Shown: positions 17,441 to 63,525, counted from the first letter of the whole stretch. The stretch: DNA of 63,986 nt, filler included, from Perkinsus olseni (GCA_013115125.1; 4 parts of 4 records of this genome joined end to end with filler, not necessarily neighbours in it); one strand, 5' to 3'. Notes: generated by a model not told the origin, from the letters alone. Numbers and translations are program-made.

Positions 17441-17540
17441 NNNNNNNNNNNNNNNNNNNNNNNNNNNNNNNNNNNNNNNNNNNNTTAATTAATTAANNNN
17501 NNNNNNNNNNNNNNNNNNNNNNNNNNNNNNNNNNNNNNNN
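17441..17540. other. Artificial contig linker (N44-TTAATTAATTAA-N44)
   Basis: Identical 100-nt spacer with stops in all six frames, present three times. Confidence 0.98.
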
Positions 17541-31717: not shown

Positions 31718-34528
31718 TGCAACAAAATACTGAAGCCTGAGCAAGATACAGCACGAAGATATCAGGTTCAGGCGAGCTTCTGGGCTGGTTCGGAGTGACT
31801 ATATTATCGCCTGAAGAAATGTACGTCGAGGACTCCTTCACGTGAACACCCCTGTGTACTCACTGGGCGCCTCGCGAACGGAATAGGAGAGCAAAGAATA
31901 CCGTAGGCTATGGTCATCAGCGATGTTACCATACTAAGCTTGTACTGTCCGATTGCTAAGTTAACTCATTATTTATAACGAGATTACGAAGCTCATCTTC
32001 TCCTCATGAACAAACCGCTAGCGTCCAGTGGTTGGGCTATGTACGCGTGCGCTAGCCCACTGGAGAGCAGTCTTCTCGCTCGGTGACAACTTACAAGAAC
32101 AACGCCTCCTGATGTTCCCGTCGGCACGGTCCATGAGGTTCCTATCTTTGCTTGGTGCACTCGGTGAAAAGATGCTGAAGCAGCGCTTCCTCAAGTTCTG
32201 CCCTTGATGCACGCATGTGTTGAGTACCGTTGGGTAATCTCGATCGGAGACTGATCATTACTAGGACTGAATCGGTCGGTAATTCACAGTAATAAGCACA
32301 GCATTAGCCCGCGACCAGGTATTTCAGCTGACCACGGTGGGAAGAAGCTCACCAGGGGCAAAAACTACACAAAGGTCCTCACGCGCATGAACAGCTCGAA
32401 ATCTGTCTCCTGGTGACACGATGGACATATCTAGTTGCTCCTCCAACATTGAGGAGGACTGGACCTTATGCGAGAAGCCTTCTCGGAGGGGGCCCTATTA
32501 TAGGGGCCCCTCTTTTGCACCTTCTCGAAGAAGGTGCAGAAGCCCCCTCGCCACAACGGATTCAGTTGAGGAGAAGAGTTCAAGAATTAGGGGCTGGAAC
32601 AGACCGAATGAACAGACTGCAAAGTCTTGAAGCGGTGAGCCGCTCTCACAGCACAGTTTCCGCTGTCAGAGACTCTCGGTTTCAGAGGTTGTGATTGCAC
32701 GACGCCCCTGTACGAGCATTCTAACACGCGTCGTGCCCACAGTGCCCCTGGGGCAGCGAAGTGAGAGAGTCCCGCCGGTCAGACATAGATCCGCATCCTT
32801 TCGAAGAGCTGCCCGGGGAAGGGATGTCGAATAAATCACCGACGTCGGCAGCTCGTCCAATGAACGGACCGATCAGGACGGCACAAAAGAGACTACAGTA
32901 TGCTGTGCTGGCGTGAAAGCAGTATGTTGCTCCCTCAAGACCATCACGACGACCAGGAGAGTGGTAAAGTACTGCGTAGTGTCATTGTCGCACCCCCTGT
33001 TGTGCAAGGTTCATTCACTTATGATCAGCGATCGCCCCTAAGTCACCAGAGAGCACATGATGGCCGAAAGTTGCTGTACACGCTACATAGGAGTGAACGG
33101 TACAGCGAGCATCCCACTCCACGCAATCCGCAGAGGAAATCTGCGTGCGCTTGATTTTACTGCCCGAACTCTCCATACACGGCCCCATGACATCTTGTGA
33201 TGAAGCCGGGTAAGAAGCATCATGTCGTTGAGATGAAGTTTAAGAGGAGCCCCTTCTAGTTTGTTATCCAAACCTCGATGGAGATGGGCCGCAATAAGCA
33301 GCTTACCAGCTTATTATAAGCTCCGAAGCAGGCTAGGCCAGGTGTTCCGGTTCGAGTTTGAATATCTACTGCGTCTTGTTGTGGAGTTTCCACTCGTAAT
33401 CTCACCCTAATCACAAGTAAGAAAGAGCGTCGATCGAGCTGACTGCGTGGCGAGCATCCTGTCAGCCAAGCGATGAACATACTGTAGACGAAGTCCCGGA
33501 TTCACTCTCGGCCGACTTAAAGTCGGCGACTTTAACTCTTCTTGGCATCAGCAAACCAATCCTGCCGCGGAGGAAACTATATTTTGATCCCAGTTTGTCG
33601 CAGGGGTACCCAGCATTACGGCAGCACGCACCACGCACTCTGACCATAACCAAGTCCGCGACCCTAGCAGTTAATCGAGAAGATCTATCAGGGTTACTGA
33701 CAGTAACTTACTGTAACTCCGATAGATCTCGAGTTAGAACCATCTGAGAGGCTTAAGAGTAGAATCCACGCTGGTCCGCTCAGTGGAGCTCGGATTTCAC
33801 GCCCAAAACAGTTCTTCGCGATGCGTTTTTCGCGAAAACCGCGATATATTGTGTTGCAATAACACTTCGCGTCATAACGCACGCGTGAAACGCAATAACG
33901 CGAAGAACGCAAACGAGATAGCGCGTCCATGGCTTAGCCCACCTTTTCCTTTGTGTTGCCTCCAAAATCACCCGATACACCCGAATGGCACAACAGATGA
34001 ACACCCGAGATCCAGCTTCGGGAGTGGAGGGACAGGCCAAGAATTGAGTATAGCCAAAGTATACCGCCTCTTTGAGGAGTGATGCCATGAGCGGGTTCCG
34101 CTTGATGAAACACTACAATAGCGCTGGAATGGGTTATTGAAGTCTCAAGCTTACAAGATACGAAACTATTCGCAGTCTCTCGTTCATATGACCTGCATGG
34201 GCTATGGTGAGTCAGACAGTGCGCGTGCATCCGCTAACGGGACCTGACCCTCCACGGAGCCCACAAGTTCTCTGCGCTCGGGACAGCATGACGCGATCGA
34301 TTTTTGCATAGCAGAAAGCAAGCCCAACAGCGGAGAATTGGGTGATGCCGGACAATAGGATGGCGATGCCAGCGTGGTCGATTTCTAGTCAGCTGAAAGT
34401 AATCCCACTCGAGAATTGGTGCGTTCCCTGCTTTGACTGGCGTCGCATTGAGTGAAACTTTTGATTGTCAAAAGACTTCGGTTCGGCTCGGGTCGACTAT
34501 CGAGTACGTTCAGGTTCTTTGCTCAAAC

Positions 34529-34924
34529 ATGAAGTCCTTCTCCGTTGTGACAACTCTGCTCCTCATTTCTGGTGCCAGTGCCACTGAAGACGATGGTTTG
34601 TTGACGAGCGATGCTCTTCGCCTCCTCCAAGGCAATAACGAAACTAATGGTGGCGAACTTGCGGCTCCGTTGTTTCGTCGCAGGCGGCCAAGGCGCCCGC
34701 CGCCGACGGAGCCACCGCAGCCCCTGCCAACGGAGCCACCGCAGCCCCTGCCAACGGAGCCACCGCAGCCCCCGCCGACGGAGCCGCCGCTGCCGCCGGG
34801 AATCCGTCCTATCGCTGATTTCCCCCCTGGTTGCTTCGATGGTCCAGGTCCGGTTTTTGGTGAAAATTTCAACCGCTTCGAGGAGACAGCCATCTGCGTC
34901 TACACCATTTCCAGACCTACTTAG
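34529..34924 (+). CDS. Secreted protein family B copy 2 with Pro-rich repeats; truncated near contig end
   Basis: MKSFSVVTTLLLISGASA signal, (P[P/L]PTEPPQ)x~4, and IADFPPGCFDGPGP...EETAICVYTI homologous to the 29323 protein. Confidence 0.75.
   Translation: MKSFSVVTTLLLISGASATEDDGLLTSDALRLLQGNNETNGGELAAPLFRRRRPRRPPPTEPPQPLPTEPPQPLPTEPPQPPPTEPPLPPGIRPIADFPPGCFDGPGPVFGENFNRFEETAICVYTISRPT
34698..34797 (+). repeat. 24-bp coding tandem repeat (PxPTEPPQ units)
   Basis: cc[g/a]acggagccaccgcagccc units repeated about four times. Confidence 0.9.
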
Positions 34925-34973
34925 TAAAACCCCAGACCAAATTAGTAAATCCCCAGAGCAATTTAATGAAGCC

Positions 34974-35073
34974 NNNNNNNNNNNNNNNNNNNNNNNNNNN
35001 NNNNNNNNNNNNNNNNNTTAATTAATTAANNNNNNNNNNNNNNNNNNNNNNNNNNNNNNNNNNNNNNNNNNNN
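34974..35073. other. Artificial contig linker
   Basis: N44-TTAATTAATTAA-N44. Confidence 0.98.
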
Positions 35074-35415
35074 ATCCCGAGATTCCATCATATGAGTCAT
35101 ATATAAGCATAAATGTCATTTGCATATCAAACTGGCACACACAGTAGTACGTATTAAATATATCAAACAACGCATACGTGTATTGAATTGCGCCGTACTT
35201 CAAGTACGGCGTACCAGTACGGTACTTGGGAACCGCTGCGACCGGTAGTACGGTTACGGAACCGTACTCGTACTAGACCGTACTGTCGCCCACCTGTAAC
35301 CCTTATTTTAACAACATATTTCTAATTATCCTATATTCACGCATCTCTTATTCGTTATGATAACATCAATCGAGTTTGATCCGTGGCGTAGAAAACACTG
35401 GTGAAAAACGCCACA

Positions 35416-35511
35416 TTTCAATTCGCGATTTTCCCGGTTTTTCAGTTCGCGATTTTCCCGGTTTTTCAGTTCGCGAATTTCCCGGTTTTTCACTTAACGA
35501 TTTTCCCGGTT
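35416..35511. repeat. 24-bp minisatellite, 4 copies
   Basis: Unit TTTTTCAGTTCGCGATTTTCCCGG with minor variants. Confidence 0.9.
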
Positions 35512-36096
35512 TTTTTCACTTTGCCAAGAACGCCAAATACAGTACCAAACAGTTATTGCAGAGCGCATTCTCTCACCTGACGACTATCAACTACCGACCG
35601 TACTTGGGTGTGCAGTTGTCCAGCCGGATCCAGAACAGGTACGAAAACGAATAGAACCCCAGTCGAGAGCCCGCAATCCAAGAATCTTGCAAAAAAAACT
35701 CAGCGCGAACAACCGCCAAAAAAGGCAAAAAGGACACCCGTGAGGATCGAACCTGGAACCTCGTCTTTCATGGAATTCCGTAAACGAAGGCCCCGCCCTT
35801 CGTCGCAAGGGAACCACTCCCTTCTTAACTCACCCATAAACTCAGCTCCCTGCTGGGACGAAATTTTTCCGGAAAAATGTATAATCCTAGCCTGGAGAAG
35901 GAAATTTCAGTAGCAGAAAAGTTTCGCACAAAAAAAATTCTTGTAAATTCTCGAAAAAAACCGTTCCCGTCTTAGCATGAACAACTCGAACAAAAATCCT
36001 TCGCACTGCAGTATCACCGAAACGACATAAATGTACAAACATATCCAAATCGATCACGCGATCGATTCCGATTTTACAAGCTATACACTGCAGTCA

Positions 36097-39000
36097 TCAA
36101 CCTCTTCCCAGGTCAAGGCCGTCCGCATTTCGAAGTCGCTGTTGGCCATCCATGTCGCCGCCATCCGGGTTCATCACAGAATTTCTAAAAAAAGATCAAA
36201 TCGATCGCGTGATCGATTTGCCCGAACCCAAACCTACGAAGCCTGATCATCTGCATCATCCTCCATCGCTAAACGAATATATCTGAAAACAAACGTTTTC
36301 TTGTCGCTCGCGAAAAATCCCCGAAAATTTTAGGAAAAATTTTCGGAAATTCGCCCAATATAGTAAAATCCTCACGTAGCATTGAACTCATTTTATTTCG
36401 TAATTCTCCAACCCCCCAAGCAATTACGGAAAAAATCTCAAAAATTTCGAATATTTTTCTGCAAAAATTCTCCACCAAACCAGCGGACCACCCCAAAAGA
36501 TTTCAACTGCGGGCAGAAAAATATTTTTACGAAAAATTCGCAAAAAATTCCGCCAATTTCCTCACTCTTGCGCGCAAAAACGGTCCCAATCGCTGTAGTC
36601 CGGATGCTCCAGCTGCTCCTGTTTTATAGAGAAGGGGTCTCGTTGCTCGTACCTGAGCACGGATAAATCGATCACTCGGGCGCGCGCTGAATTAAATCGC
36701 ACCAGAAAAAGAGGATACTATTAAATACGGACTGAGAAGATTAGCGTCACCACGCCACGAAATTGAGAGCGACTGTACTGCAGTTGGTAGTCGTCAAAAC
36801 ACATTTGGCGTTGAGGAAATGCAAGAGAGCAAGTCATGGTGCTCTGCTGCGAATCTTTAAAGTGCGCAGGTTCAAAAGATACGTCATCCCTGCTCACGCT
36901 AGGAACTTGTTCAAGCTCAGCAAAATGCTGAAAAAGATTCCCGAAATCTTCCGCGTGCGCTTGAAATCCTCCAATTCAAATTGACCTTCCTGCTCCGGCC
37001 TGAACAAGAAAAAAAATTCCGGAAAAATTCCGGAATAATTTCGGGGCGCGCGACGGTGTTACATGATTAGATCGTTCATTTGACACAGAATATCTTGAAA
37101 TTGGACAGCTTCTTGATGAAGGCACTCAAGCCGTTGAACTTGCTCGAGATAAAAATACCTGCTCACATCAATGGTGACCAAATCGATCACCAGGGCGAGC
37201 GCTACTTACGCCATCTCATGATCCCTGATCACACCGTCACCGTCCAAGTCAACCAACTTGAAGAAATACTCCAATGACGTGTCAGTCGTCTTGTCCTCGT
37301 CCGAAATCAAAAACCCTGACAAATCGATCAACTGGGCGCGCGCTTTTTACAAATATGAGGGGGCTCACAACAGAAGTCTTCGTAACCCATTTTTCCGGGG
37401 ATGCCGGAGATGAACTTTGCCGGAATTTCCGAGAATATCCGGTCGATCGCTTTCCGAGAAAACGCGTGGCCATCGTACTTGAGCAGATCATCCTGACAAG
37501 AGTATCTTTAGGTCGAGCATGCAAGATGCAGACGAGGTTCGTGCAATTGAATCTTCAGGTCAATCACGTAAGATACAGAAGAGGTCAAGATACGTGATCT
37601 TGACGTGTGAATAATTTCCGCAGAGTGAACGAATCTTCCCCTCAATCATGTAAGATACAGAAAAGGTCAACACGAAACAATTTCCGGGCGCGCGAGAAAA
37701 CCCTCGAACCGTTTCTTACTTTATCCAGTAGGAAATCATGGTCTTCATCCAGCTCCCAAAATTTGCAATATAAAACGTAAAAATGTTCATAGGAAAAGTA
37801 CGCGCGTATCTTGTTGATATCTTCGCACTGGTCGAGCTCGAGCCAGGTATCCACCAGGGACGGTCGGGACCTCTGACAATGACCGAAAATTACGATAGGA
37901 AATTTTCCGAGAATCACAAGAAAAATCACAAAATAATTACAAAAATAATTGCAAAAATTTGCCGAAAAATACCGAAAATCTAAAATTTAATTTCAGGTGA
38001 ATTTCGTCGCGCAGTTTGAAACAAGCGTGAAAAAATATGAGTAAAACAGCGGAGCGAAAATCTGAAAATGAAAACATTCAGCGATAACGGTAACTGAGAA
38101 GTCCACGGTCGTTTCTGAAGATTCCGCATTCTCTGTAAAAATTCTAACATAATATTTTCCCAACATAATCGATCAACCGTTTCACAATGCTCACATTTAA
38201 ATCTCTCAAAGTAATTCGTCCCAACTGTCGCGAATCGCAACAGTAGAAGATTCTACACAAAACCGTGTCCGTGTACCGATCTTGAAACTCGGGCGTATCT
38301 TGCAGGAACTCCAAACCCGGGTGGGTGTCCAGCAAAACTGATAAGAAAAATGCAATGCAATTAGCGCTCGCCCAGTTGATCGATTTACCCCAAACGAACT
38401 CTCGGAAGTCGTTTTTAACGATAAACTCGCACGTATCTTTCCGCACTATATTGAAGAAGTTCTCATAGGCCTTGCCAAGCTCCAGGCCGATACCGCGCCA
38501 GTATCTAAAAAGTTGAGAAATTGCAAGATTGCAAGATTCAGAAAGCGTCACTGCGCCACGAAATTACTTCACAAACATATCTTTTGTTACGGCCGCGCTT
38601 TCATCAGCTCCATTGAAAGAGCGTATCCGACGCAAAATAGGGTCTGCGAAATACCTGGCAAAATAATGTCGCGCGCCACGAAATTAAAAGTGGCGAAAAA
38701 AGAAGGCGGAGCGAAGCACAGCTCACATCGACACGCAAAGTTGTTCACTGCAGAACGTCTGCCATATAGAAAAGCAATCCTCGTCCATTGGGTCGATTGG
38801 ACCTGAGTAAAAACGTCACAATCCCGGAATAAATCCCCCACTCAGACGATTCTGACGCTCCTCTGGCGCCAAGTTACTCAACCGATCCGGACGCCGAGAA
38901 TCGCGAGAAAAACCGAAACAAAAAACGCTTCGCTCCGCTAACCTCCCAGTTCTTCAAACAGTTGACTGATGACCTCCTTTTCTCGCGTCGTCAACGGATC

Positions 39001-41152
39001 TGTCGCGCGCCTCGATTTTACCGGTATGTAAAATCTCGGAATTACATCAGCACCTCGACCGATCAATGAGGGGGCCTGAAGATGTGCATGCGTGCAAATA
39101 CTTCATACCACTCCTTCCGTAACTCTCAGTTGACATATTCAAAAGACTAAGAGATTTCTCGGGATCACCACCATCGAAGGTCCGCCCACAAATCATGGTC
39201 AACGACAGTGGGCAATTTCATATCGAATCATGATACCACTACCTCCGTAACTCTCAGTTAACATATTCGAGAGAGTAAAAGAGATCTCCGGCATCATCAT
39301 CATCAACACTAAAGGCTCACCCTCGATTTATGACGATAATTCTGGTAATTTTTTTTCGAATTTTATACCACTCCCTGCGCAACTCTCGGTTTACTTATTC
39401 GGAAGATGGAGGAGTGATTCACTAAGAGATATCTTTGGAATCATCACCATTGAAGGCCCTCCCTCGAATCACATACGTAATCTTCATAAAATCTTCGCGG
39501 TGCGCGACGAGCGTATCAAAGATACGAGCGATAAGTGAGTGATATCATACCGCTCCTTCCACAATTGCCGATGTGCTCAGTTAGGGGCTCTCTGTAGCGT
39601 TGACATGCAGTGCAATCAGACAGATTGTCAGGAAGCTTTCCTCAGGGGTACATTCAACCAGAGAAGCTTCCTTCCCTCCCAGCAAGATGCGCTTACGCAT
39701 CCGGGAGGCGGTCTTTATATCAAATTTTGATACCCCCCTGATCCCCCGATTTTCTCTACAATTTACCATACCACTCCTTCCACAATTTCTGCTGGATTCC
39801 ACTCACCCCCTCAATGCTGGTCATCATTGCCTTCTTGGGCGTCGCCCCGGACTCCGAGCTGGCCACCGTCAGCTGTCCCGAAGCCGCGCCGCCCTTGGGA
39901 CTCGACCGATTGCTCGGCGAGGTAACTTTCTGCCTGCCGTTCGAAAGGTCGCCGGATCGAATCCTACCCCCTCCCTTACTGTTTTTCCACAACAGGCGAC
40001 TGGTCGGCATCAGATGTCCTAAACATTCAGTACAACCTAATCCGTATCCTCCTCGCTTCAACCTAAGATTCCCTCACCTCCTCCCCGGCGATTTCGGTGT
40101 AATAACTGCACTAGCAGGCGGGCTCGCATCCTTCAAAGTGAAGTATCTGCCGGTAATCGAAAGGTCCCCGGTTCAATCCTCGGCATCTCCATCACGGTGG
40201 CGGTGCTCCGAGCAGCTCCTCTTCCCACGATCCATTGGCGCCTCCCGGGCTATGTGACGGCGACCTGTAAAAATAAAAACTCATCAGAAATTCAGCAGAA
40301 AAAATATTTTTCTGAATTTTCCCAGTGATACCATCTCGATACCAGTATTTCTGATTACTAAATTTTAACTTTCCTCGACATACCCCTCCCCCATTCCCAT
40401 TACATCTCCTGAGCACTTTTCGGCGTCGGCCTTGAAACTCACACTAACTCTAAGAATTTTTTTCGGCTGTGTGGAAGAATTAAACTCTTCCATGCACCCG
40501 AAAAAAATTTTTTTCCACTCCTATTCTTCATGCAATCATTCTTGCCCTTCTTTGAGCGACTCAGTTAGCCTTGAGTCACGACCATTGATGAAACAATTTC
40601 GATTCTCACTGTCTTCCAACAGAAGACAGTTTCGAAATTCCGAAGTCTCGACGAAGACGCTTTCAGGGAGCACTTTCGTGAGCAAAGCAAAATCGCTCCA
40701 ACCGGCCAAGGATATTCATCGCGGGGTAAGAACTTTCCGAAAAATAGTCAGAATTTTTCCTACTCAGAAAAAATAGAATTCCGTCCACCAGAGCAGATTT
40801 CTATACATATTAACCATACAAATCAAATATCAACGGATAATCATCGTCCGCGAAATTTTACGAAAATTTCCCGAAATTTTCCGGAAATTTCCTGAAAAAA
40901 TTTACTTACAATCCAAGACCAGCACTAGGCGATCGAGTGGTCGCCGGAATAGCCGTACCGGACACCGGCGTATTGTGAGGAGAACTCGCTAGGGCGGCGA
41001 GAGTGGCAGCATCTGCGTTGAGAAAATGCAAGAGGGAGCAAGATTGCAAGATCACCGTTATTTGCTAGAGCCACCAGTCTTTTGACGAGCTTCGCTGCCT
41101 GTGGTGTCGAAAGCCAATCTTGGAAGAACTCGTCCATCTTGCAACTCACCAT
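36097..41152 (-). CDS. PPP2R3: Protein phosphatase 2A regulatory subunit B'' (PR72/PR130 EF-hand family), multi-exon
   Basis: Diagnostic blocks: [101 protein letters not shown] (EF hand); EQRDPF...[17 protein letters not shown]. Spliced stop at 36097; start approximate. Confidence 0.92.
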
Positions 41153-41589
41153 ACCATACCTGAAAAAAAACTTCGCTCCGCCGACGTATCTTTCAACCTC
41201 ATGAAAGACCAGCTCAACCTCTGCGTACAATTTTGCTACAAACGGATACGATGCAAGTTCCATCTTGCAATCTTGCATTTCCTCAACGGCCCACTTACAT
41301 ATCCATATCAACCGGAACGTCATCTTCCGGCGGCCTCGTAACGCTGAGCCGTACTTCCGTTGGACTAGACTGAAGGGTCATAGCAGGGAAGATAACATCA
41401 CAACGCTACAGTGGGTAATCCAAAGGTCCCCGGTTCTATCCCCAGTCAAGACACTTTGAACGCAACCCATGCGTGTAAATATTCAATACCACACCCTCGG
41501 TAAATAACATGAAGGCCGCCCTATTTAAAACGCGATTCTCTCGTCCTAAAACCGAAATCGATCGCCAGGGCGAGCGCTTTTTACAACCT

Positions 41590-43070
41590 TCCCAGATCCA
41601 CCTTGCTATGCTAGGCCGGGCAGTTGGATCCTCATTAAACTTCACGAAAGATTTATAGTTTCGAGTCTCGGCGCCGTTTTGGACTCGAGTCGCTTGGAGT
41701 CGCTGAAAGTTATATAACAGTAAAAAATGAAATCGATCAACCGTTTCATACTAATTTTATATTTTGGTGAATTGCATCCGCCATCCCTCGGTCTCTCTCC
41801 AAAATACTCTTCGCACGAAATAACTTCCGTGTCGGCTCGCTCCCATCTCGCCGGGCGATAGCTTCAACCTAAGATTCCCAAAGATTCTCCGGACGATAGC
41901 TTCAACCTAAGATTCCCAAAGATATGCTGTAAGCTAACCTTCGAGAGGTTCCCAGGATACCCAGAAGATATCACGATCAAATTTCCTCTATAAAAGCTAC
42001 ACCAAAACGCTCATATCGATCACCCGATCGATTTACTTCAGGATTCTTCTTCATTATTTTCCACTGACTGTTTAGCAAATCTGCTTTCAGTCGAGTAACA
42101 TCGCTCCGCCATTGCGATGAACTCGGCCTTCCAACTAAGATACCTTGCGATTGCGCACGCGGAAGATTCCTCTGCTCGCCCGAGTGAAAGATTCTCTCTT
42201 CATACCTGCCACCAGCAACCCCACGATTCACCAAAGGAGTGGTATACATTCCCAACCCTCACAGTATAATCGTGCGCGAAATACTCCCATCACCGGAAAT
42301 TTTCGCACAATTTTTCTTACATCACAAGGAGATGCGTATCTTATGTTGATTATGGACGTTCACGAGTGTGGCTCCCTTCCAACCGCGCACTTCGCTCCGA
42401 TTTTCGCAAAAATTATAAAAAATTTTCACAAAATTCCTCGGAATTTTCCGCATGCTCGCCAATAAAGTTTAAAGTTTAAAAACCAAAGTTTAAAAACTGC
42501 AAAACCTCTCCAATAAGAACCACGTCAAAATCAGTTTCTTCTTCATGAAGTATCTTAGGTCACCCTATATACACCACGCTTCAACCTAAGATACCCTTTG
42601 GTACAACTCCTGATCATCCTTCAAGCCTTTCTCGAATCGATATTTCCGGGACGCTTCCTTAAGCGATTTAATACAGATGTCAAAATCAGCCAATATCTTC
42701 TCCCGCCTCGCAGCCCTAGCCTCCTGAAGCAAATCGATCATCCGGGCGAGCGCTTTTTCAAACCGCAATACTACCTTCCGAGCAACGTTCGAATCCTCTC
42801 GCGCTCTTTGCTTCCGCGCATGCTTCAGACGATCCGCCGCCCGGAAAAAAGTAGGAACAGAGCGACTCAACTGCGTTGAGGAAATGCAAGATCGCAAGTT
42901 TCACAATCTTAACTCACCAAAGCCACTCCTGCGATTCCGCTAGAGGCAGGATTTCTGAGGAACACAGCCAGAATCTTGCAATCTCGCATTTCCTCAACGC
43001 ATAAACTTACACTTGCGACTTGCTCGCATGTGACGTAGTTGGAGCTGTCAATGTCTGACAGTACCATAAT
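41590..43070 (-). CDS. Hypothetical multi-exon protein (charged, coiled-coil-like)
   Basis: Minus-strand exon-like pieces (AADRLKHARKQRARED; LQEARAARREKILADFDICIKSLKE; WRSDVTRLKADLLNSQWKIMKK) separated by short introns carrying the same motifs as PP2A introns. Confidence 0.4.
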
Positions 43071-46000
43071 TTCGCTAATTCGTACGAATTCGAAATCCTA
43101 CCCGCTGTCGGCGAGGCCCTTGAGAAGGCCGCGATCTGGCAGTTGACGGCCGGGACAAGCGAGCACCGTCACGCGCCTGAAAAATTTTCAGAAAAGTTAG
43201 ACCGAAAAATCCGAGCGATGATTCGAAGCCAACGCTGCGCGTATCTTTTCAATAACTTCAACCTCCTTCCCACATCAACAGTGAAGTTTTTCCCCGGGTA
43301 AAAACGCCCTGCTGATCGACTACGGTCAGACGACACAACTACCATCACTGTGAGTTTGCGTGCGAAATATGATATATCAGGGAATGAAAATTTGCTGTTC
43401 ACAAGTCAGAGGGTTGAAGCACGGAAGAAACAGAAAAAAAGATGCACCGAAAAATTCAAGCAACTCCCACCTAAGCCCGCCGTTCAATAAAGTAATTCTG
43501 ACAATCAAGATTTTGAAAATTCAAATTCAAAATTCAAACTGAGATTTTGAAAATTCTGGAAAATATTTTTACGCGTAAAATGCGGTTCCAAAATCGCCTG
43601 TGATTTTCAGAATCGGTGTATTAAACGACCCCAGGACGTAAAGGGGGTTCGCGAAAAAAACTGAAAACACTTGGCAAGCCACGCCTTTTCATTCGTACTG
43701 AAACGGTTACACCCTAGAGCTTGAAACGACAATCAAAGATACTTTTCAGTGACACTCATGACATACACGGAATAGGTCGAATCACATACGGATACGCCAC
43801 CAACGTAGCTTAAAACTTCTCTTCCGAAAAAAAACTCGAAAAATTTCTTTCATAATAATACTTTCTTATATAAGAGCATACCGCACGCTCAACAAGAAAC
43901 TCAGTCAACTTTCACAATTATGAATTCTGAATTTTCGGCTTCGACGCCGAAAATCCACAACATCAAAAATACCGTCGAAAAAAGCTCAACAACTCAGTGA
44001 AAATTAATCAACAACAAATGGCAGTTTACTCAAAATTCTATCGTGCAGGGCTGAACGTGTCACCAGCAACTGCTGACGATCATCATCGCTAACTATTACT
44101 ACGATAAAGGTAATAACTATAGCCTACTATCAGAAACGGTTGAGACCGAACATAAATTATGATATACCGTAATCTACGTAGAAGAATTAAATTATCATCA
44201 CGCGCGTACCAAAAAAAACTTTTCATGAAATATATGAATTATTTTTTCTAATTCATGAATCATAATCATGCTCTTATACAGTAGATACGGCATCTCAGCA
44301 CAGAGCAGCAACGACAAGCCGGCTTCGGAGTGCTGACGAGATTTGGGCGTGGTGTGGTACGCCAAAACTGGCGTATCCAGCCCCCGGTCCTTTACTACCT
44401 TTCCGAAACATACGCGCAAAAGGACTTGCGCTATAATGCGGTCGTCGATAATTTCGTGGCGCGTGACGATGACATTGGCTGGAGCACTGAGCGGCCGTTT
44501 GTGATGGTCGTGCTCAACCCCAAGATGCGTCTTAGAGCGACCCGTGCCCTCTGGATACGTGCCTGATCGGATCTGCAGGTCGGAGGAATCTTTTCAACTC
44601 GCGAAAAGCCATGATCGACCTGTCACACCAAAGATACGTTTCTTGATACTCTCAGTGATCGGGCGCAAATTTGAACGACGCATTAGGAAGCAAGCCGAAT
44701 ACAGGCGTATCCAAGGTCGACCCTTGCATCATACAAAAATGATATCAGCATTCTCCCTGCCTATCATGACCAAGACGGTAAGTCATAGTGTGAAGAGCGG
44801 AAGTTGTGGTATTCACCAATTCCCAGGGTCTTAAAACTACGCACGCGCGAGGACCGTTCGTAGTTCCACAACAAGCTACTTCTTTTCCGTGAAAACGAAC
44901 ATTCACAAATACCCGGCGAAAAATTCTCTCCTATTTCCGAAGTCGTACCAGAATCGAAAATTTTTATTTTTGTAACAGGTTACCACTTTTTCGTCCAACG
45001 GAATGAACTCAGAATGAAACGAAATCGATAATTAATATCGAAGATGTATAATAATTCCCACAGTCTGAATTTCGATAATGAATTTTTCAACAACATTCTC
45101 TCCGCGCCAAAAATAAAATTGCAAAAAATTCCGCACAAACTAGGAGAAAACTTTTTTACCGAAAACTTCCAGAACCGAAAATTTGAAGTTCATAACCGGT
45201 TGTGACTTCTCCGACTAACGAAATTTCACGTAAAGCAAGAGAGCGAAAATTTCCATGACGAATGCCAAACATCTCCATCCGCAAGTGGTATCCAAAAAAT
45301 CCTCAGGAGAAAAATTTGACACGGAAATAATTATCGACGGTAAGATATTCTTTCTCGAGTGTTACCGGAGCCGAAAATACTTAATTCATAACACGTAACC
45401 ACCCTTGCTAGGAGAAGTCCCAAAAAGCAATACAATGACAAGCATTAAGGGATGCTCGATAAACTTCAAGTTTCCATCAAAACTCGCGTTCTCTCTAGCC
45501 AAAGAAAAACACAGAAAAAATTCCAAAAACGCCAAGATACAACTTTTCCTCCCAGTACTACCAAAGTCCTGCCCGGCCACACCCGCTGAACCCTTGCAAT
45601 TTCGATTTACATCACCTGATAAGACCATTCTCCATGTTTCGGAAATTCGCCGACCAACCGAAAATCACTGGCGCGTTCCTCTCACGACGAGACCATTTCC
45701 CGATCCAGCAACGGTGTCAGATTTTTCCAGTTCAATAACAGGCGATCAATATTCTGCGCAAATGGGGAAATTTGAGTAACGGCAGTGAAAACAGTACACC
45801 AAAAGAATCAGAACCACAAAACATAAATCACAACAACCAAAGCGACATCCGCTGGCAAAGTATGCCCACTCGATACGCGTTTAATATTGAAGAAAGACGG
45901 CTTTCACGAGTTCTCAGTACGCTCGCTGAACAGGTTTTTGTTGAGTTCTACATTCTCTCGCTATCCTAGGAAACGGGTAACGAGGCCAGTGTCAAGGGTC

Positions 46001-52488: not shown

Positions 52489-52588
52489 NNNNNNNNNNNN
52501 NNNNNNNNNNNNNNNNNNNNNNNNNNNNNNNNTTAATTAATTAANNNNNNNNNNNNNNNNNNNNNNNNNNNNNNNNNNNNNNNNNNNN
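52489..52588. other. Artificial contig linker
   Basis: N44-TTAATTAATTAA-N44. Confidence 0.98.
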
Positions 52589-58196: not shown

Positions 58197-58683
58197 TACT
58201 CTGCTGTTGGCGCAGATACGCGAGGAGAGATGATAAAACTTCTGTTGTATAGGAATAAGACATTCTACTGCGTGTCTGGATATCAACACTCGACTGGCCA
58301 GCAGGCTTGCCGTGCCTGCATGCCGGCGTCGATTCGGACCGAGCGGTCCAGAACCACATAAGTCGGAGACCCTCCTGCTGTGTCGTGAGGGAGTCGGATC
58401 CCACTCGGGCCGATGCCCGTTCGACTGTTACAACGAAAGCAGCACAGAGGCGGGACTGGGAATCGATTGATTTATGCAAAGTCTTTAACGACAAATTTAT
58501 ACTCATTATTAATACACCGGCCGCCATTAAGACCGGTGGGTGCTTCTTTCACATGCTCTTCGGCCGGGTCGCGATTTATCGATACTTCAACAATTCTACG
58601 GCTACACGACATGGCCCTCGACCGACGTATCTTTAGGTCGACTATGGTCCTCCGCAGAATGCTCGACATTAGTCAAGACCTGA

Positions 58684-61600
58684 TTACACCAGTAGGAAGG
58701 CAGGGGACTCCATCGCTCCGCTCACGTCTCCGAACGCTTCGAAGACCAAACCAGCAGGAAGTGAGAATAAGGCAACCCCGAGGAGGGCTACAACCACACA
58801 GAGACCCTTACCGGCTGGGGAGAAATCTACCATACCCCAATCACCTGAGGGGAAGGGAAGATGAGCGACGGCGGAGACGACCGAGGCGACTACCGCCTAG
58901 GAAGACTGCCGAGTAATACATACTGGACGGTATCGACTCAAAAGGGGAGTCCTCAACAGCAGCACCGGAGGGCGGGTTCTCGAACTCATAGAAAAGGCAG
59001 GAGACGAACAACCACACCTGGAGGGCGAGGCTAGGGCTAGCTCGACGTCGAGGGGCAGCTCACCACAGCTGCGATGACGCCGGTCGAGATGACGGAATCC
59101 TTGCATTCGTACCATACCAATGATAAATGACGCCAGGCTATGAAGAAGTGCTCCAGTAGAAGAATCTGAGGGGCCGTCCGACGACCGAAGTTGAAGCGAA
59201 CTCACCCGGAAGATTCTGAAGACGCGAAAGATACTCGCATCGGCTAGCCCTCCGAGGGAGGGGTCCAGCAAGTAGACGAGGCATTCGACCCAGAAGGGCA
59301 ATATTGATATCACGTCCACCAGGCCGAGGAAGGACTTTATGTACCTCCCCCGTCTACAGCCGACGAGGGGGTTGGCTGGGGCGCTGTAGAGCCTGGCCAA
59401 GTAGTCCACAGTGAAGAGGGTTACCTGAGGGGTAGGTCACAGGGGAGACGAGCGACGCTGCTGCTGACCGATATGAACTCTAAGTAGTCGAAGAAGGCCT
59501 TGCCAATGACGGACAGGATTGCCGCGTCGCTCTCTAGGAGGACAGCGAGGATGTTCAACAGTATAAGCACCATCATCAAACCGCGGTAGAATCGCTCGTG
59601 GTGTATCAGACAGTGGACACGATGAACCAGCGTTCCTGAGGACAACTGTCAACTGCAGCAGGCTGCTTTCAACCTACTTTTGCGCCGCTCCGCCAGCTCC
59701 CTCATCTGCATCAGGCGGGCCTCCATGGCGATGCCTTCGAGCCTCTTCCGCACCATATACCTCCGAACGTGCTTGCCGATGATACCGGCAGCCTCCCTCC
59801 TCCGGGCCCGCTCCCTCTCCCGCCGACTTCGAAGAGCTGTCGTGAAGGCAGCCGCCAGCAGGCCCGCAGGCACCGCCGTGACGCCCACCGCGAGGACAAC
59901 AGCAAAGGCCAGCACGACCTTACCGCTGGCCGTGTAGTCGATGATGGGAAAGTCTCCGGTGAGGTGTACCATAGCGTAAGGGAACGAGGAAGATATCAAC
60001 GACCCATAGCGCACGTCCTGCGGTAAGGGAGGATCCCCAGCCAGCTGCCTGTCGGTGTGCTCAGTGAACCACAGCAGACCACCGAGTGACAGCCATAGGG
60101 CTAGCACTACGTATAGGGCACGGACCAGGCACCTCCGCTGGGCCTTCACGACCCTCAGGAGGAGGGAGCAGGTCGAGGAGAGGAAGTCCAAGTTGAGTAT
60201 CCGACACAACCGTAGTAGTCGGAATTCGCCATCATAGCGATCGGTGAGGGAGGAGTTGGTGGACACTGTTATCCACCAGGGGAGTATGGAGAGCAAATCC
60301 ACGACGGCGAGGAAGGTGGTGGCGTAGGCCCAGCGCATCGAGCTCGGAGTGACGTACCCTCGAGAGGCCCACTTGCCAACACCCAATGGGGCACAGTACA
60401 GCCGCATGCCATAGTCAAGAGTGAAGACCAGAACAGCAGCAGCCTCGCCGATCGACATCAGCGTCCGTGACCAGAGCGGCCAGGACTGGTGGTATGAGGC
60501 GAGTGTTTCTAGTACTGCAACTAGGGTACTGATGGCCAGCCAGAAGCCCAGCCAGTGCTGATAGCAACTCGACCAGTATTGCATCGTAGCTCCTTTGAAG
60601 CAGTCAAGTTTACTCCGGTCGTCCGTCTCTCGAGGGTTGACTATTGCAAAGACTCGACGCTGCAGTGGATAGGTGGTGCGAAGCGCTTCCGAGGTTGCCA
60701 TCATAGCCTGCTTGGAAGTAGCTGCCGCGGCGGGGACGTCCTCATCAAGCAGGGCTTCTAACCTGAGAGAGCTGCAATCGTCTTTGACCGGTCATTTGTC
60801 TGTGTGACCTGTCTTGCATGCCCGTGCCGAGCACTCCCAAGGGGACACCGACTACTCCCACGGCGAAGAGCCCCAAGCCAGCAGTGATGATAGAGCCCAG
60901 GAAAGAGTAGTCGCCCAGAGGAGACTCTCCAGACAGATTGAGGAGAGTCAGCCACAAACTACCATCAAGGGTTGAATAATACCGACCCACCTGAAGGGGA
61001 TCTGCGAGTCCAGGAGGAGATCAGGCCAGCCTCACCTCAGGGTCGATGGCGTATCTTTCGGTGTAGTACATGACCTCCGCTGAGAGCAGCCAAATGCCCA
61101 CAGCCAGCCCTCCAGAGTAGAGCAGCATCGCCCTGTTGTCCCGCAGGATTTGCCGAAAAAAGGCGAATCCCGCTACGTATCGCTCCGCCTTGAAGACTCG
61201 GACCAGCAAGAGCACCCGAAGGTATTCATTCGTCGGCATGAACCACAGGAGCAACCCCGGTAGGACCGCTAGGACGTCTACCAGTCCATAGGCGGTACCG
61301 AAGGCATACTCGCAAAATCTTGCCTGTGCGCGAGGGAATCTTGTCGCTCGGCTGGTATAGAAGATCGTCGAAGTGGCGGCAGAGTGGTTGAACTCAGGCA
61401 TGAGCGGAGCGCAGTAGAGCCTCACTAAAAGCTCCACTGTGAAGACCAGAGTGACGATGACCCCCAGCGGGCCGAGGGCGTAACGGTCCAGTGGTGGTCT
61501 GGTGGGTGGAGGCAGGCCGAGCAGCAGAGTGTGGATGAGGGAGAGCGGTAGCAAGATCCAGCAGGTAATGAACCTGAGAGTCGCACGATTAGCGCTTCGA

Positions 61601-63525
61601 CGTCGTATTGAATGCGCAGGCTACTACCGCGTGAACTTGCCGAGGTCGACTCGCCAGCCCTCACCCCCTCCGGTGGAGGTGAGCCGCAGTACCATCTCAC
61701 CGTGATGGCCGTCGAGGGCGCGCATGATCCGGAAGAGGGCCTCGTGGTCCAAGCCGACCCTACAGCCGATCCATCATCGCTATAGAGGAATCTTGGGTTG
61801 ACCCCAGCGCTACCTAGCTGACAAAGATTCTTGAAACTCTAGCCTTGTTATGACAGGGAGCCGCTGCCTCCCACTGGCTGGGGTCTCTCCAGTTGATAAC
61901 GATGCTTCCGGTGTGGTGATGACGTCATGGATCGCCCGAAGACGCGACTGTATGCCAGCACCAAGCAGACCTACAGATGAGTGAGGTCCTCCCATCAAGA
62001 AAGAGGAGTAGTCTCGCTTCAATACAGCCCCTGCTGTGTGCCGGAGGCTGACTTCCCATACCACATCTCAGTGAACGCTTCGTGGAATCGCACACTATAC
62101 TCTGTGTTATCTGGTCGGACATGAGTCGAGCTCTTTCCTCGTAGTTTTCAAGTTTGAGGATACCGTTGATAATTTTCATTATAGAAACAGCTCATGGAAT
62201 GCTTTCGAGTAGGGTATGGTCCATTGAGGGGATGTCCCGTCCGGCGACGGTCGAACTGTGAAGGGCCGATGGACTCACCAGCGGGTATGGCCACCACGGC
62301 TGCTCCAAAAATAACTGCAAAAATTGATATAATACGTCCGCCGGTAGAGTAGTCTGATATGTGGGGGAATTCCCCGAGTAATACGATGAGAGTGTGGTAC
62401 ATGGAGAGGGGTATCGAGGAGTACCTGAGGGGGCCTACCAACCAGATCGGCTAAGCTGAAGAGGTACCTGTTGTAGCACAGACTGGGAGCTAGGGGCCCC
62501 TCGGGACAATAGAGCATACGCGGATTGTTCTTCTCAAAGTAGTAGTAGAGGCTGCTGAAGACCAGCCAGCAGCTGAGGCCTAAGAACCCTGAGAGGACGA
62601 GGCATTGGCCGGTGAAGCCACACTGAATGCTACTCGCACCCGTGGTGATAAAAAAATGCCTTTGCCTGCTGAAGGCCTCCTGGAGGGTCTCCATGCCCTC
62701 GACTGGAGTGTATCGCTCGCCTTCGACTGGAATACCATGATGATCATAGTCGTAGTACTCATCTTCAGAGGTAGATTGACAAAGGAGTGGTATGAGAGTG
62801 GACATCCATTGTGAGTAGATAACATAAGGCCAGCCTAGCAGCGGTACCAGGATAGCAAGACTGAGGTAGTAGGGCACGACGGCAACTGCCAGTACCTGGT
62901 GAAGGGACAACGATAAGAGTGCCAAGCCGAGTAATCAGAATACATCGACTCCGGCACGCAGCTCAGTCACACAAAGACCGGGCAAGCCGCCCGCAGCCTT
63001 CCACCGAAAGGTTACCCACCCAGATTCGTCGTTGCACCCCTCCTCCCCCGTGTAGCTCCTTGACCACTGCAACTCCAAGGATTGTTGTTAGTGCTAGAGC
63101 CAAGGCCAGCTGATAGGCTTGCAAGGCGATCCATGCCCAGAGGGGTAGGGAGAGGTTATCACTGTTGGTGATGATACCGAAGACCACGAACGAGAGAGCA
63201 CCCAGGAGAGCTAATAACCAGTCTGATCGGAGCAGTGCGGCCAGACGAGCCTGACAAGCGGCAGCTAGAAGTGTCAGAAAAGTCCCGAAGCAGTCTTCAC
63301 CTTGCCTTTCACCTTCAATGCCATCTGGCTCTTGCACAAGGCCTCAGTGACTATGGTTGGAGGTAGCTTCTCGCTGACCCTCCGTCGCTGCTGCTGCTGG
63401 TCCTCGAGCATATCCTCCCCTACTACTTGGTACTGGTTTCCCTCATTCTGATGATTAACAAGTAGTGGCGTGTCCAATGACAAAGGTGGTATCTCTCGAT
63501 GGTCCTTCGTCGTCAATAATGCCAT
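58684..63525 (-). CDS. Voltage-gated ion channel superfamily protein with four tandem 6TM repeats and an IQ-like motif, multi-exon
   Basis: Repeated S2/S3 (FTxExxxRLY...VDxLSILP), S4 (RLLRLCRIL; FRVFRIFRVL; RVLLLVRVFK), and pore-S6 blocks (LLGEFP, LSGESP, LTGDFP, LGGDWG, each followed by DY/F-S/T..G and xPxG). In-frame splice joins can be traced between repeats. Confidence 0.8.

Follow-up and report, generated by a model that had tools for sequence, protein, structure and literature searches.

What kind of protein is encoded between positions 58684 and 63525 of the window (a stretch of 63,986 nucleotides, filler included, in which four parts of the Perkinsus olseni genome GCA_013115125.1 are joined end to end) is the question raised by this locus. 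Four ion-channel pore motifs follow one another there on the minus strand, and an original prediction, made from the sequence alone, had read them as one channel of four six-transmembrane (6TM) repeats, each resembling a K+ channel but with an acidic pore signature, outside the Cav/Nav and two-pore channel (TPC) lineages. The explanation favoured here, with moderate confidence, is a single polypeptide of 1293 amino acids (aa) that forms a pseudo-tetrameric, domain-swapped cation channel with 24 transmembrane segments (24-TM), whose repeats are derived from Kv/KCNQ channels and were joined separately from those of Cav/Nav/NALCN, and which belongs to an old, apparently undescribed family. Each of the four repeats would descend from Kv-like (KCNQ-like) 6TM channels, and the event that joined them in one chain would be distinct from the origin of Cav/Nav/NALCN.

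A single minus-strand gene was obtained from spliced contigs and a built model, with the ATG at 63525, a stop codon at 58602-58604 and 15 GT-AG introns between 16 exons. The whole coding sequence (CDS; 58602-63525, minus strand) comprises 1293 codons plus the stop, and the open reading frame (ORF) holds no internal stop once the 15 introns are removed. Introns were first derived from homologue alignments and GT-AG ends, and two public runs, X1 and X2, were then mapped to the stretch. Fifteen contig joints were found in X1/X2, 14 of which are predicted introns with GT..AG ends on the minus strand; intron 60991-61035, which also has GT-AG ends, is absent from the 15 listed joints, and segments of both X1 record 2 and X2 record 6 imply it. 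Two introns beyond the homologue-derived set (62589-62639 and 63251-63300) were revealed by the contigs. X1 record 2 (2992 bases) extends from the N-terminal region across repeats I-III, X2 record 7 spans the I-II linker and X2 record 6 spans the II-III and III-IV linkers; all three inter-repeat linkers are bridged by contigs, with 79-232 letters on the shorter side. The X1/X2 contigs lack the introns and are therefore marked as cDNA. No read of the two raw RNA-seq runs, X22 and X24, mapped to the stretch. Chance was ruled out for the pore motifs because the ORF that contains them is transcribed, spliced and conserved between species.

The single ORF with four 6TM repeats that had been predicted is thus borne out by the spliced contigs and the 1293 open codons, and the spliced ORF has its first ATG at the proposed start, 63525. 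The joins that had been traced by eye across the linkers (FTR|F-ITCW, MQDR|LEALL and ERRK|RTLVHR) are GT-AG introns (61574-61627, 60763-60808 and 59636-59677) present as X1/X2 joints. Two details had to be corrected. A GAG acceptor after repeat I is not needed, since the intron at 61971-62278 has the form GTGAGT...TAG, lies in phase 1 and appears as a 308-base skip in both X1 and X2; and the gene does not end at 58684, since intron 58680-58725 is spliced out and the ORF continues to the stop at 58602-58604.

The four filter motifs were found on the minus strand where they had been placed: LLGEFP in repeat I (aa 293-298; 62364-62381), LSGESP in repeat II (aa 621-626; 60919-60936), LTGDFP in repeat III (aa 930-935; 59946-59963) and LGG|DWG in repeat IV (aa 1227-1232; 58834-58900), the last being split by the intron at 58845-58893. 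Across 30 family members, repeats I and II never vary at G, E and P, nor does repeat III at D. Position-specific signatures of the family read (L/F)(F/L)GE(F/Y)P for repeat I, L(S/T)GE(S/C/A)P for repeat II, L(T/S)GD(Y/F)P for repeat III and L(G/A)GEW(G/A) for repeat IV. The acidic residue of repeat IV was E in 57 cases and D in one by pattern, plus D in the P. olseni model; D being rare at this position, the E/E/D/D set of the window is taken as a variant of the family norm, E/E/D/E. The parallel that had been drawn with the EEDD filter of T-type Cav channels proved superficial in view of this consensus and of a P-loop that resembles a K+-channel loop minus two residues, not a Cav loop. Kinship of the window E/E/D/D with the T-type ring was set aside as coincidence.

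GYG is absent from the 1293-aa spliced ORF of the window and from all of the 144 acidic-motif proteins retrieved, and the TVGYG filter of Kv channels was accordingly not found in any of them; the S6 PAG hinge and, in the filter alignment, the first Gly of GYG are retained. In HMMER alignments with Kv filters, a two-residue gap precedes the Gly, which falls under the first G of GYG; E/D then stands opposite Tyr, and Pro opposite Asp. A filter of the TIGE type (G-E/D-x-P, in a loop two residues shorter than in Kv) was recognised in all four repeats, by sequence pattern only. The P-loop would then be a K+-channel loop that has lost two residues and kept the first Gly, with an invariant acidic residue under Tyr followed by Pro. 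Together the four repeats are predicted to offer an E/E/D/D ring (E/E/D/E in the family) in a short filter.

Sequence searches with whole repeats and profiles pointed to Kv channels throughout. All 43 PDB matches of the window repeat-III exon were Kv (best Kv4.2, E 9e-6), as were all of the best 60 of 69 PDB matches of the homologue P0004. A profile of 30 members scored 139 bits with Kv4.2 in one stretch and 130 bits with KCNQ1, and 113.8 bits with the best Cav channel (Cav1) when four stretches were summed; with the single-domain profile, the best 60 of 72 PDB matches were only Kv, with KCNQ1 at the top. Pfam Ion_trans was matched by the exons of repeats II, III and IV among the window exons scanned. 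The prediction of Kv-like repeats without GYG is supported by these results.

A tree of 76 rows was calculated from the four repeats of 12 family members (window included), four single-domain acidic channels, 13 GYG units and 12 Cav-like domains. The last came from three proteins, Chlamydomonas CAV2 and two others with D/E filters, and the search that supplied this outgroup spanned 2840-5000 aa, leaving out ordinary Cav/Nav proteins of 1800-2500 aa. All 12 Cav domains lay beyond one long branch with a support of 100 in the Shimodaira-Hasegawa-like approximate likelihood-ratio test (SH-aLRT). Repeat IV formed one clade across 12/12 members (SH-aLRT 98), and for 10 members repeats I-III each grouped in a clade of their own (98-99), whereas the placement of the P0031 and P0049 rows did not resolve. 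When repeat IV was forced together with Cav domain IV, the only position so tested, the likelihood was 160 log units worse (p = 6.8e-5 in the approximately unbiased test, p-AU). The repeat-class clades and the rejection of this pairing favour a separate concatenation, older than the divergence of the lineages sampled, and place the protein outside the Cav lineage, as had been proposed. The family profile had no TPC among its best 60 PDB matches; TPC sequences were outside the tree, and the window has four repeats against two in TPC. Within the sampling of the tree, it is supported that the repeats are Kv-derived, four in one chain and not of the Cav lineage.

Structure was predicted with AlphaFold2 for P0004, by using a 30-row alignment (predicted local distance difference score 81.4; predicted template-modelling score 0.79). 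In each repeat of this model one pore helix leads into a 10-residue coil with the motif and then into S6, and there is no second pore helix. Separate S4-S5 linker helices were present in repeats II-IV and therefore indicate a domain-swapped build. The top Foldseek matches were Nav1.7, NavPaS, Cav3, Cav2, Cav1.2 and NALCN, at template-modelling (TM) scores of 0.59-0.66 and identities of 11-15%. The modelled fold is that of a Nav/Cav-like 24-TM pseudo-tetramer; since any 24-TM single chain is favoured by Foldseek, the ranking says little about descent.

These structural matches are one argument for a very divergent member of the Cav/Nav/NALCN lineage that shares its concatenation and is Kv-like by convergence or ancestry. 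The 4 × 6TM single-chain, domain-swapped build is the same, the best 50 Foldseek matches were all Nav, Cav or NALCN, an acidic ring is spread over four repeats that are not identical, the family profile still matches Cav1 with E 5e-32, and a tree with the family and Cav on one side was not rejected. Membership of that lineage is nevertheless judged very improbable: the 12 Cav domains stand apart from every family repeat, the pairing of repeat IV with Cav domain IV carries the penalty given above, a single Kv domain outscores four Cav domains summed, the model has no second pore helix, identity to the Nav/Cav structures is 11-15%, and Foldseek is a weak guide to descent for the reason stated. 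Retention of K+ selectivity, or of otherwise Kv-like behaviour despite the unusual filter, is unlikely but less so; it is favoured by K+ channels being the nearest sequence relatives and by the retained Gly and PAG hinge, and is opposed by the absence of GYG from all 144 acidic-motif proteins, by the shortened loop with an acidic residue in place of Tyr, by the absence of Ion_trans_2 (the Pfam K+-pore domain) from the first 27 single-domain hits, 25 of them acidic, and its presence in the GYG hits below, and by the fact that the one clade-level exception cited in a 2020 survey, the TIGE filter of cyclic-nucleotide-gated (CNG) channels, is called non-canonical there (PMC7576140). Least probable, to the point of being hardly credible, are separate neighbouring genes or a decaying pseudogene, with the long ORF a product of over-optimistic joining. 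An odd 54-base joint with non-canonical ends in repeat IV and the loss of the repeat I S4 charges could be read in this way, as could the contig coverage considered below; the bridged linkers, the GT-AG ends of 15/15 introns, the 1293 stop-free codons, identities of 94% and 70% to P. olseni and P. chesapeaki proteins, and transcriptome-derived homologues of 1128-1311 aa with the same four-repeat order speak against it.

Several points nevertheless weigh against the favoured explanation of a Kv-derived, separately joined channel. The full CDS is covered by no single contig of X1/X2, and the two runs are catalogued only as 'RNA?', the cDNA status of the contigs resting on the absence of introns. 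The repeat III pore module alone found no channel in the PDB and only chance light-harvesting matches (E 0.4-0.8); the Kv signal therefore resides largely in the sensor, in S6 and in the helix that follows S6. The tree was built without TPC, CatSper, BacNav, TRP, CNG and HCN, by a 'quick' search and with long Cav branches, and the group constrained in the test of repeat IV against Cav domain IV was chosen once the tree was known. The deep order of repeat classes, GYG channels and single-domain acidic channels did not resolve (supports 80-93), and a tree uniting GYG and single-domain acidic channels was not rejected (p-AU 0.47). AlphaFold2 was run on P0004 and not on the window protein, and Pfam IQ had no match in the window exon or in nine homologues.

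Membership of the family was assessed with an exhaustive, profile-free search by the repeat-III exon, which gave 1363 proteins at E <= 0.001. Among 162 proteins retrieved, 144 had acidic motifs without GYG, 10 had GYG only and eight had neither. The closest named proteins were a P. olseni hypothetical protein (94% identity) and a P. chesapeaki protein (70%), both over the repeat-III exon. Full-length members have about 1100-1300 aa and four Ion_trans stretches; in a Pfam scan of eight four-repeat members, four stretches were found in each except the P. chesapeaki gene model, which had three. The repeat order was identical in the transcriptome-derived homologues (1128-1311 aa). Named four-repeat members are from Perkinsus, Symbiodinium (automatically named 'Shal'), Cyclotella cryptica, Thecamonas trahens and Mesostigma viride, and Atlas clusters point to diatoms and haptophytes as further sources. 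No named hit was from an animal, in searches that were not designed to test absence from animals.

Single-domain relatives of about 300 aa with LTGE(F/Y)P were found in Porphyridium (automatically named 'KQT member 4/5'), other red algae and Petalomonas. The first 27 hits of the single-domain profile comprised 25 with an acidic motif and none with GYG; after a gap in score, GYG was present in 89 of the next 93 hits, and several of the named ones were bacterial. In precomputed Pfam lists, none of the first 27 carried Ion_trans_2, whereas the GYG hits below did. The red-algal single-domain channels P0138, P0228 and P0213-P0215, which bear the automatic name 'KQT member 4/5', have LTGE(F/Y)P in place of GYG, and from this motif their K+-channel names are probably wrong about selectivity. 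A metagenome protein, P0079 (1493 aa), carries four tandem Kv-like units, each with TIGYG; their grouping in trees (support 100) points to a recent internal quadruplication.

Comparison with known systems helps to place the family. Kv channels, especially Kv7/KCNQ and Kv4, have the same 6TM units with a charged S4, S4-S5 linker helices and the S6 PAG hinge, and gave the best sequence matches in every whole-repeat and profile search; the helix after S6 of KCNQ2 aligns with the window helix after repeat III. Kv channels, however, are assembled from four separate single-domain subunits and the window protein from four non-identical repeats in one chain; the TVGYG filter is replaced by a loop shortened by two residues, in which an acidic residue stands in the Tyr position; and the KCNQ C-terminal domain was not found in the family by Pfam. 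With Cav/Nav/NALCN the family shares the 24-TM pseudo-tetrameric form, four specialised repeats and the acidic ring, and the best structural matches. These channels differ in low identity (11-15%), in a clade of their own and in positional orthology, which was rejected at repeat IV; they are much longer than the family proteins of about 1100-1300 aa, and the Cav-like proteins P0192-P0194 have filters of the T-x-E/D-x-W type against G-E/D-x-P in the family. A two-helix P-loop is a defining feature of Cav/Nav/NALCN, whereas the P0004 model has one pore helix.

The metazoan CNG filter is like that of the family: the YG of GYG is gone and G-E is followed by Pro. CNG channels have a C-linker and a cyclic-nucleotide-binding domain (CNBD), whereas no cNMP-binding match was found in the window exons and nine homologues; S4-S5 linker helices of the swapped type in the P0004 model are a further difference from CNG, and the PDB sequence matches shown include no CNG channel. 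The two filters may owe their likeness to convergence. In the 2020 survey, the metazoan CNG TIGE filter is the sole clade-level departure from TVGY/FG among Kv-like and CNBD channels (PMC7576140). CNGK, described in PMC6259924 as the 4 × 6TM chain representative of the K+-channel superfamily, with four near-identical repeats that each carry a CNBD and a K+ filter, is like the window family in being a four-repeat chain within this superfamily; the window family differs in its old, specialised repeats and in lacking CNBD and GYG. Kv-like chains of SAR protists also have joined 6TM units, but with two repeats and TVGYG-type filters against four acidic repeats here. EukCats resemble the window family as protist voltage-gated cation channels outside the classical families; they are single-domain and, according to PMC6509283, BacNav-like with filters such as TLDAWAD, whereas the single-domain relatives of the window family have LTGE(F/Y)P and match KCNQ best.

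More tentatively, with doubt somewhat outweighing confidence, the family would represent a third independent ancient origin of a 24-TM pseudo-tetramer, beside Cav/Nav/NALCN and CNGK, in which a CNG-like acidic filter replaced the K+ filter of Kv/KCNQ-like units at about the time of their concatenation or earlier. The single-domain form would then survive in red algae and a euglenozoan, and the four-repeat form in alveolates, diatoms, haptophytes, a streptophyte alga and an apusomonad.

How such a channel would work can be predicted in part. CNG channels are non-selective among cations, and the behaviour of CNG and engineered NaK-CNG pores underlies what is expected of the filter. G-E-x-P without YG is the metazoan CNG pattern, and a short, non-K+-selective filter with a Ca2+-binding acidic ring is therefore expected. 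The predicted filter would pass monovalent cations without K+ selectivity and would bind and pass Ca2+.

Basic residues at every third position, as in a Kv-type S4, occur in repeats II-IV (3-4 R/K) and not in repeat I. In the spliced protein, S4 of repeat II has four basic residues (61177-61224), S4 of repeat III has three arginines, one at every third position (60186-60227), and S4 of repeat IV has three arginines and spans the intron at 59166-59205 (59148-59232). The S4 position of repeat I (62782-62823) has no basic residue in Perkinsus; the P. chesapeaki protein is poorly aligned there, and other family members have 3-4 R/K. With 3-4 S4 charges and the S4-S5 linker helices of the model kept in repeats II-IV, gating is probably by voltage; the sensor charges of repeat I have been lost in Perkinsus.

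An IQ-like helix, EAAGIIGKHVRRYMVRKRL, follows S6 of repeat III (aa 986-1004; 59739-59795), and KCNQ2 alignments extend into this stretch. The post-S6 stretch of repeat III, AAGIIGKHVRRY, faces aagliqsawrfy of KCNQ2 as aligned for P0004. The post-S6 helix of KCNQ channels is the calmodulin-binding helix A, and from this match calmodulin control of the channel is likely by analogy. Pfam IQ was carried by 35% of one diatom Atlas cluster; neither a cNMP-binding domain nor a KCNQ C-terminal domain was found by Pfam in the window exons and nine homologues. The I-II linker contains an insert of about 60 aa (61570-61860) that is also present in P. chesapeaki. No EF-hand or other domain was found in this insert by Pfam (scan of the homologue P0003); it is helix-rich, and its likeness to a degenerate EF-hand pair is purely visual.

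The exons, all on the minus strand, are as follows. The coding part of exon 1 is 63301-63525, and contigs reach upstream to at least 63690. Exon 2 (63020-63250; joints 63249/63300 and 62893/63018, GT-AG ends) encodes the N-terminal helices of repeat I, exon 3 (62640-62895) its degenerate sensor region, exon 4 (62468-62588; 51-base skip 62587/62639 and 43-base skip 62420/62464) its S5 and exon 5 (62279-62424) its pore helix, filter and S6. The I-II linker lies on exon 6 (61814-61970; 308-base skip 61968/62277) and its insert on exon 7 (61628-61759). Repeat II is divided between exon 8 (61036-61573; S1-S5, Ion_trans E 2.6e-5, contigs) and exon 9 (60809-60990; pore and S6), the latter bounded by the GT-AG intron 60991-61035 that contig pieces imply. 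Exon 10 (59678-60762; Ion_trans E 1.3e-10) holds the II-III linker, the whole of repeat III, with its 43/43 Kv matches, and the IQ-like helix. Repeat IV begins on exon 11 (59469-59635; III-IV linker and S1) and continues through exon 12 (59206-59424; S2-S4, Ion_trans E 8.5e-8, contigs), exon 13 (59064-59165; S4-S5 linker), exon 14 (58894-59017; S5 and pore helix, ending ...FLGG) and exon 15 (58726-58844; DWG... and S6). Exons 3, 5, 7, 11, 13, 14 and 15 were placed by contig joints and GT-AG ends. The coding part of exon 16, with the stop (58602-58604), is 58602-58679 (46-base skip 58677/58724), and contigs reach 58457.

Some further observations were made on the contigs and on the window. The 54-base contig joint (59290-59343) is in frame and lies in the S3 region of repeat IV, with non-canonical ends (CC..TA, plus strand); its depth in X1 was 251.8 against 48-77 for its neighbours, and the depth bins of 59136-59503 were raised too. 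An allele, a paralogue or an assembly artefact could each account for it. X1 record 3 (320 bases, depth 10.7) maps to 61945-62263, entirely inside the 308-base intron that the main contigs skip, and represents either unspliced RNA or DNA present in that run. N runs at 17441-17540, 34974-35073 and 52489-52588 consist of three 44-base pairs with 12 bases between, at a spacing of about 17.5 kb, and look like masked or withheld sequence, not assembly gaps. Positions 34001-46000 of the window have a G+C content (GC) of 0.43-0.47 and a strongly negative GC skew (to -0.20), against a GC of 0.50-0.59 elsewhere in the window.

No description of a four-repeat Kv-like channel with an acidic filter was found in the open literature (supplementary tables and subscription journals were not covered). 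Searches by pore-motif strings gave eight papers, none of them on an ion channel by title or abstract and four on chlorophyll-binding or light-harvesting proteins; searches by accession gave nothing. Four-domain channels of Cav/Nav type are surveyed in PMC5824947, the main text of which, in the parts available, is without Perkinsus or diatoms, and the diatom Ca2+ channels listed in the accessible text of PMC11085791 include none of the four-repeat Kv-like acidic type. The family is widespread in protists and apparently unstudied. Four-domain channels are usually regarded as a single lineage (Cav/Nav/NALCN), beside which CNGK is the one further 4 × 6TM chain (PMC6259924).

If the explanation given here is true, a second old lineage with specialised repeats was formed from Kv-like units, and concatenation and repeat specialisation would have arisen more than once. 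The family would also provide a natural conversion of a K+ filter to an acidic cation filter, in four versions within one protein. It is found in ecologically important protists (diatoms, dinoflagellates and haptophytes) and in a mollusc parasite, and surveys of protist Ca2+ channels may have overlooked the family or misfiled its members under automatic names such as 'Kv', 'Shal' and 'KQT'. On the more tentative reading of a third independent origin, the channel would represent a major unrecognised route of voltage-gated Ca2+ and cation entry in protists, including lineages that are said to be without four-domain Cav channels.

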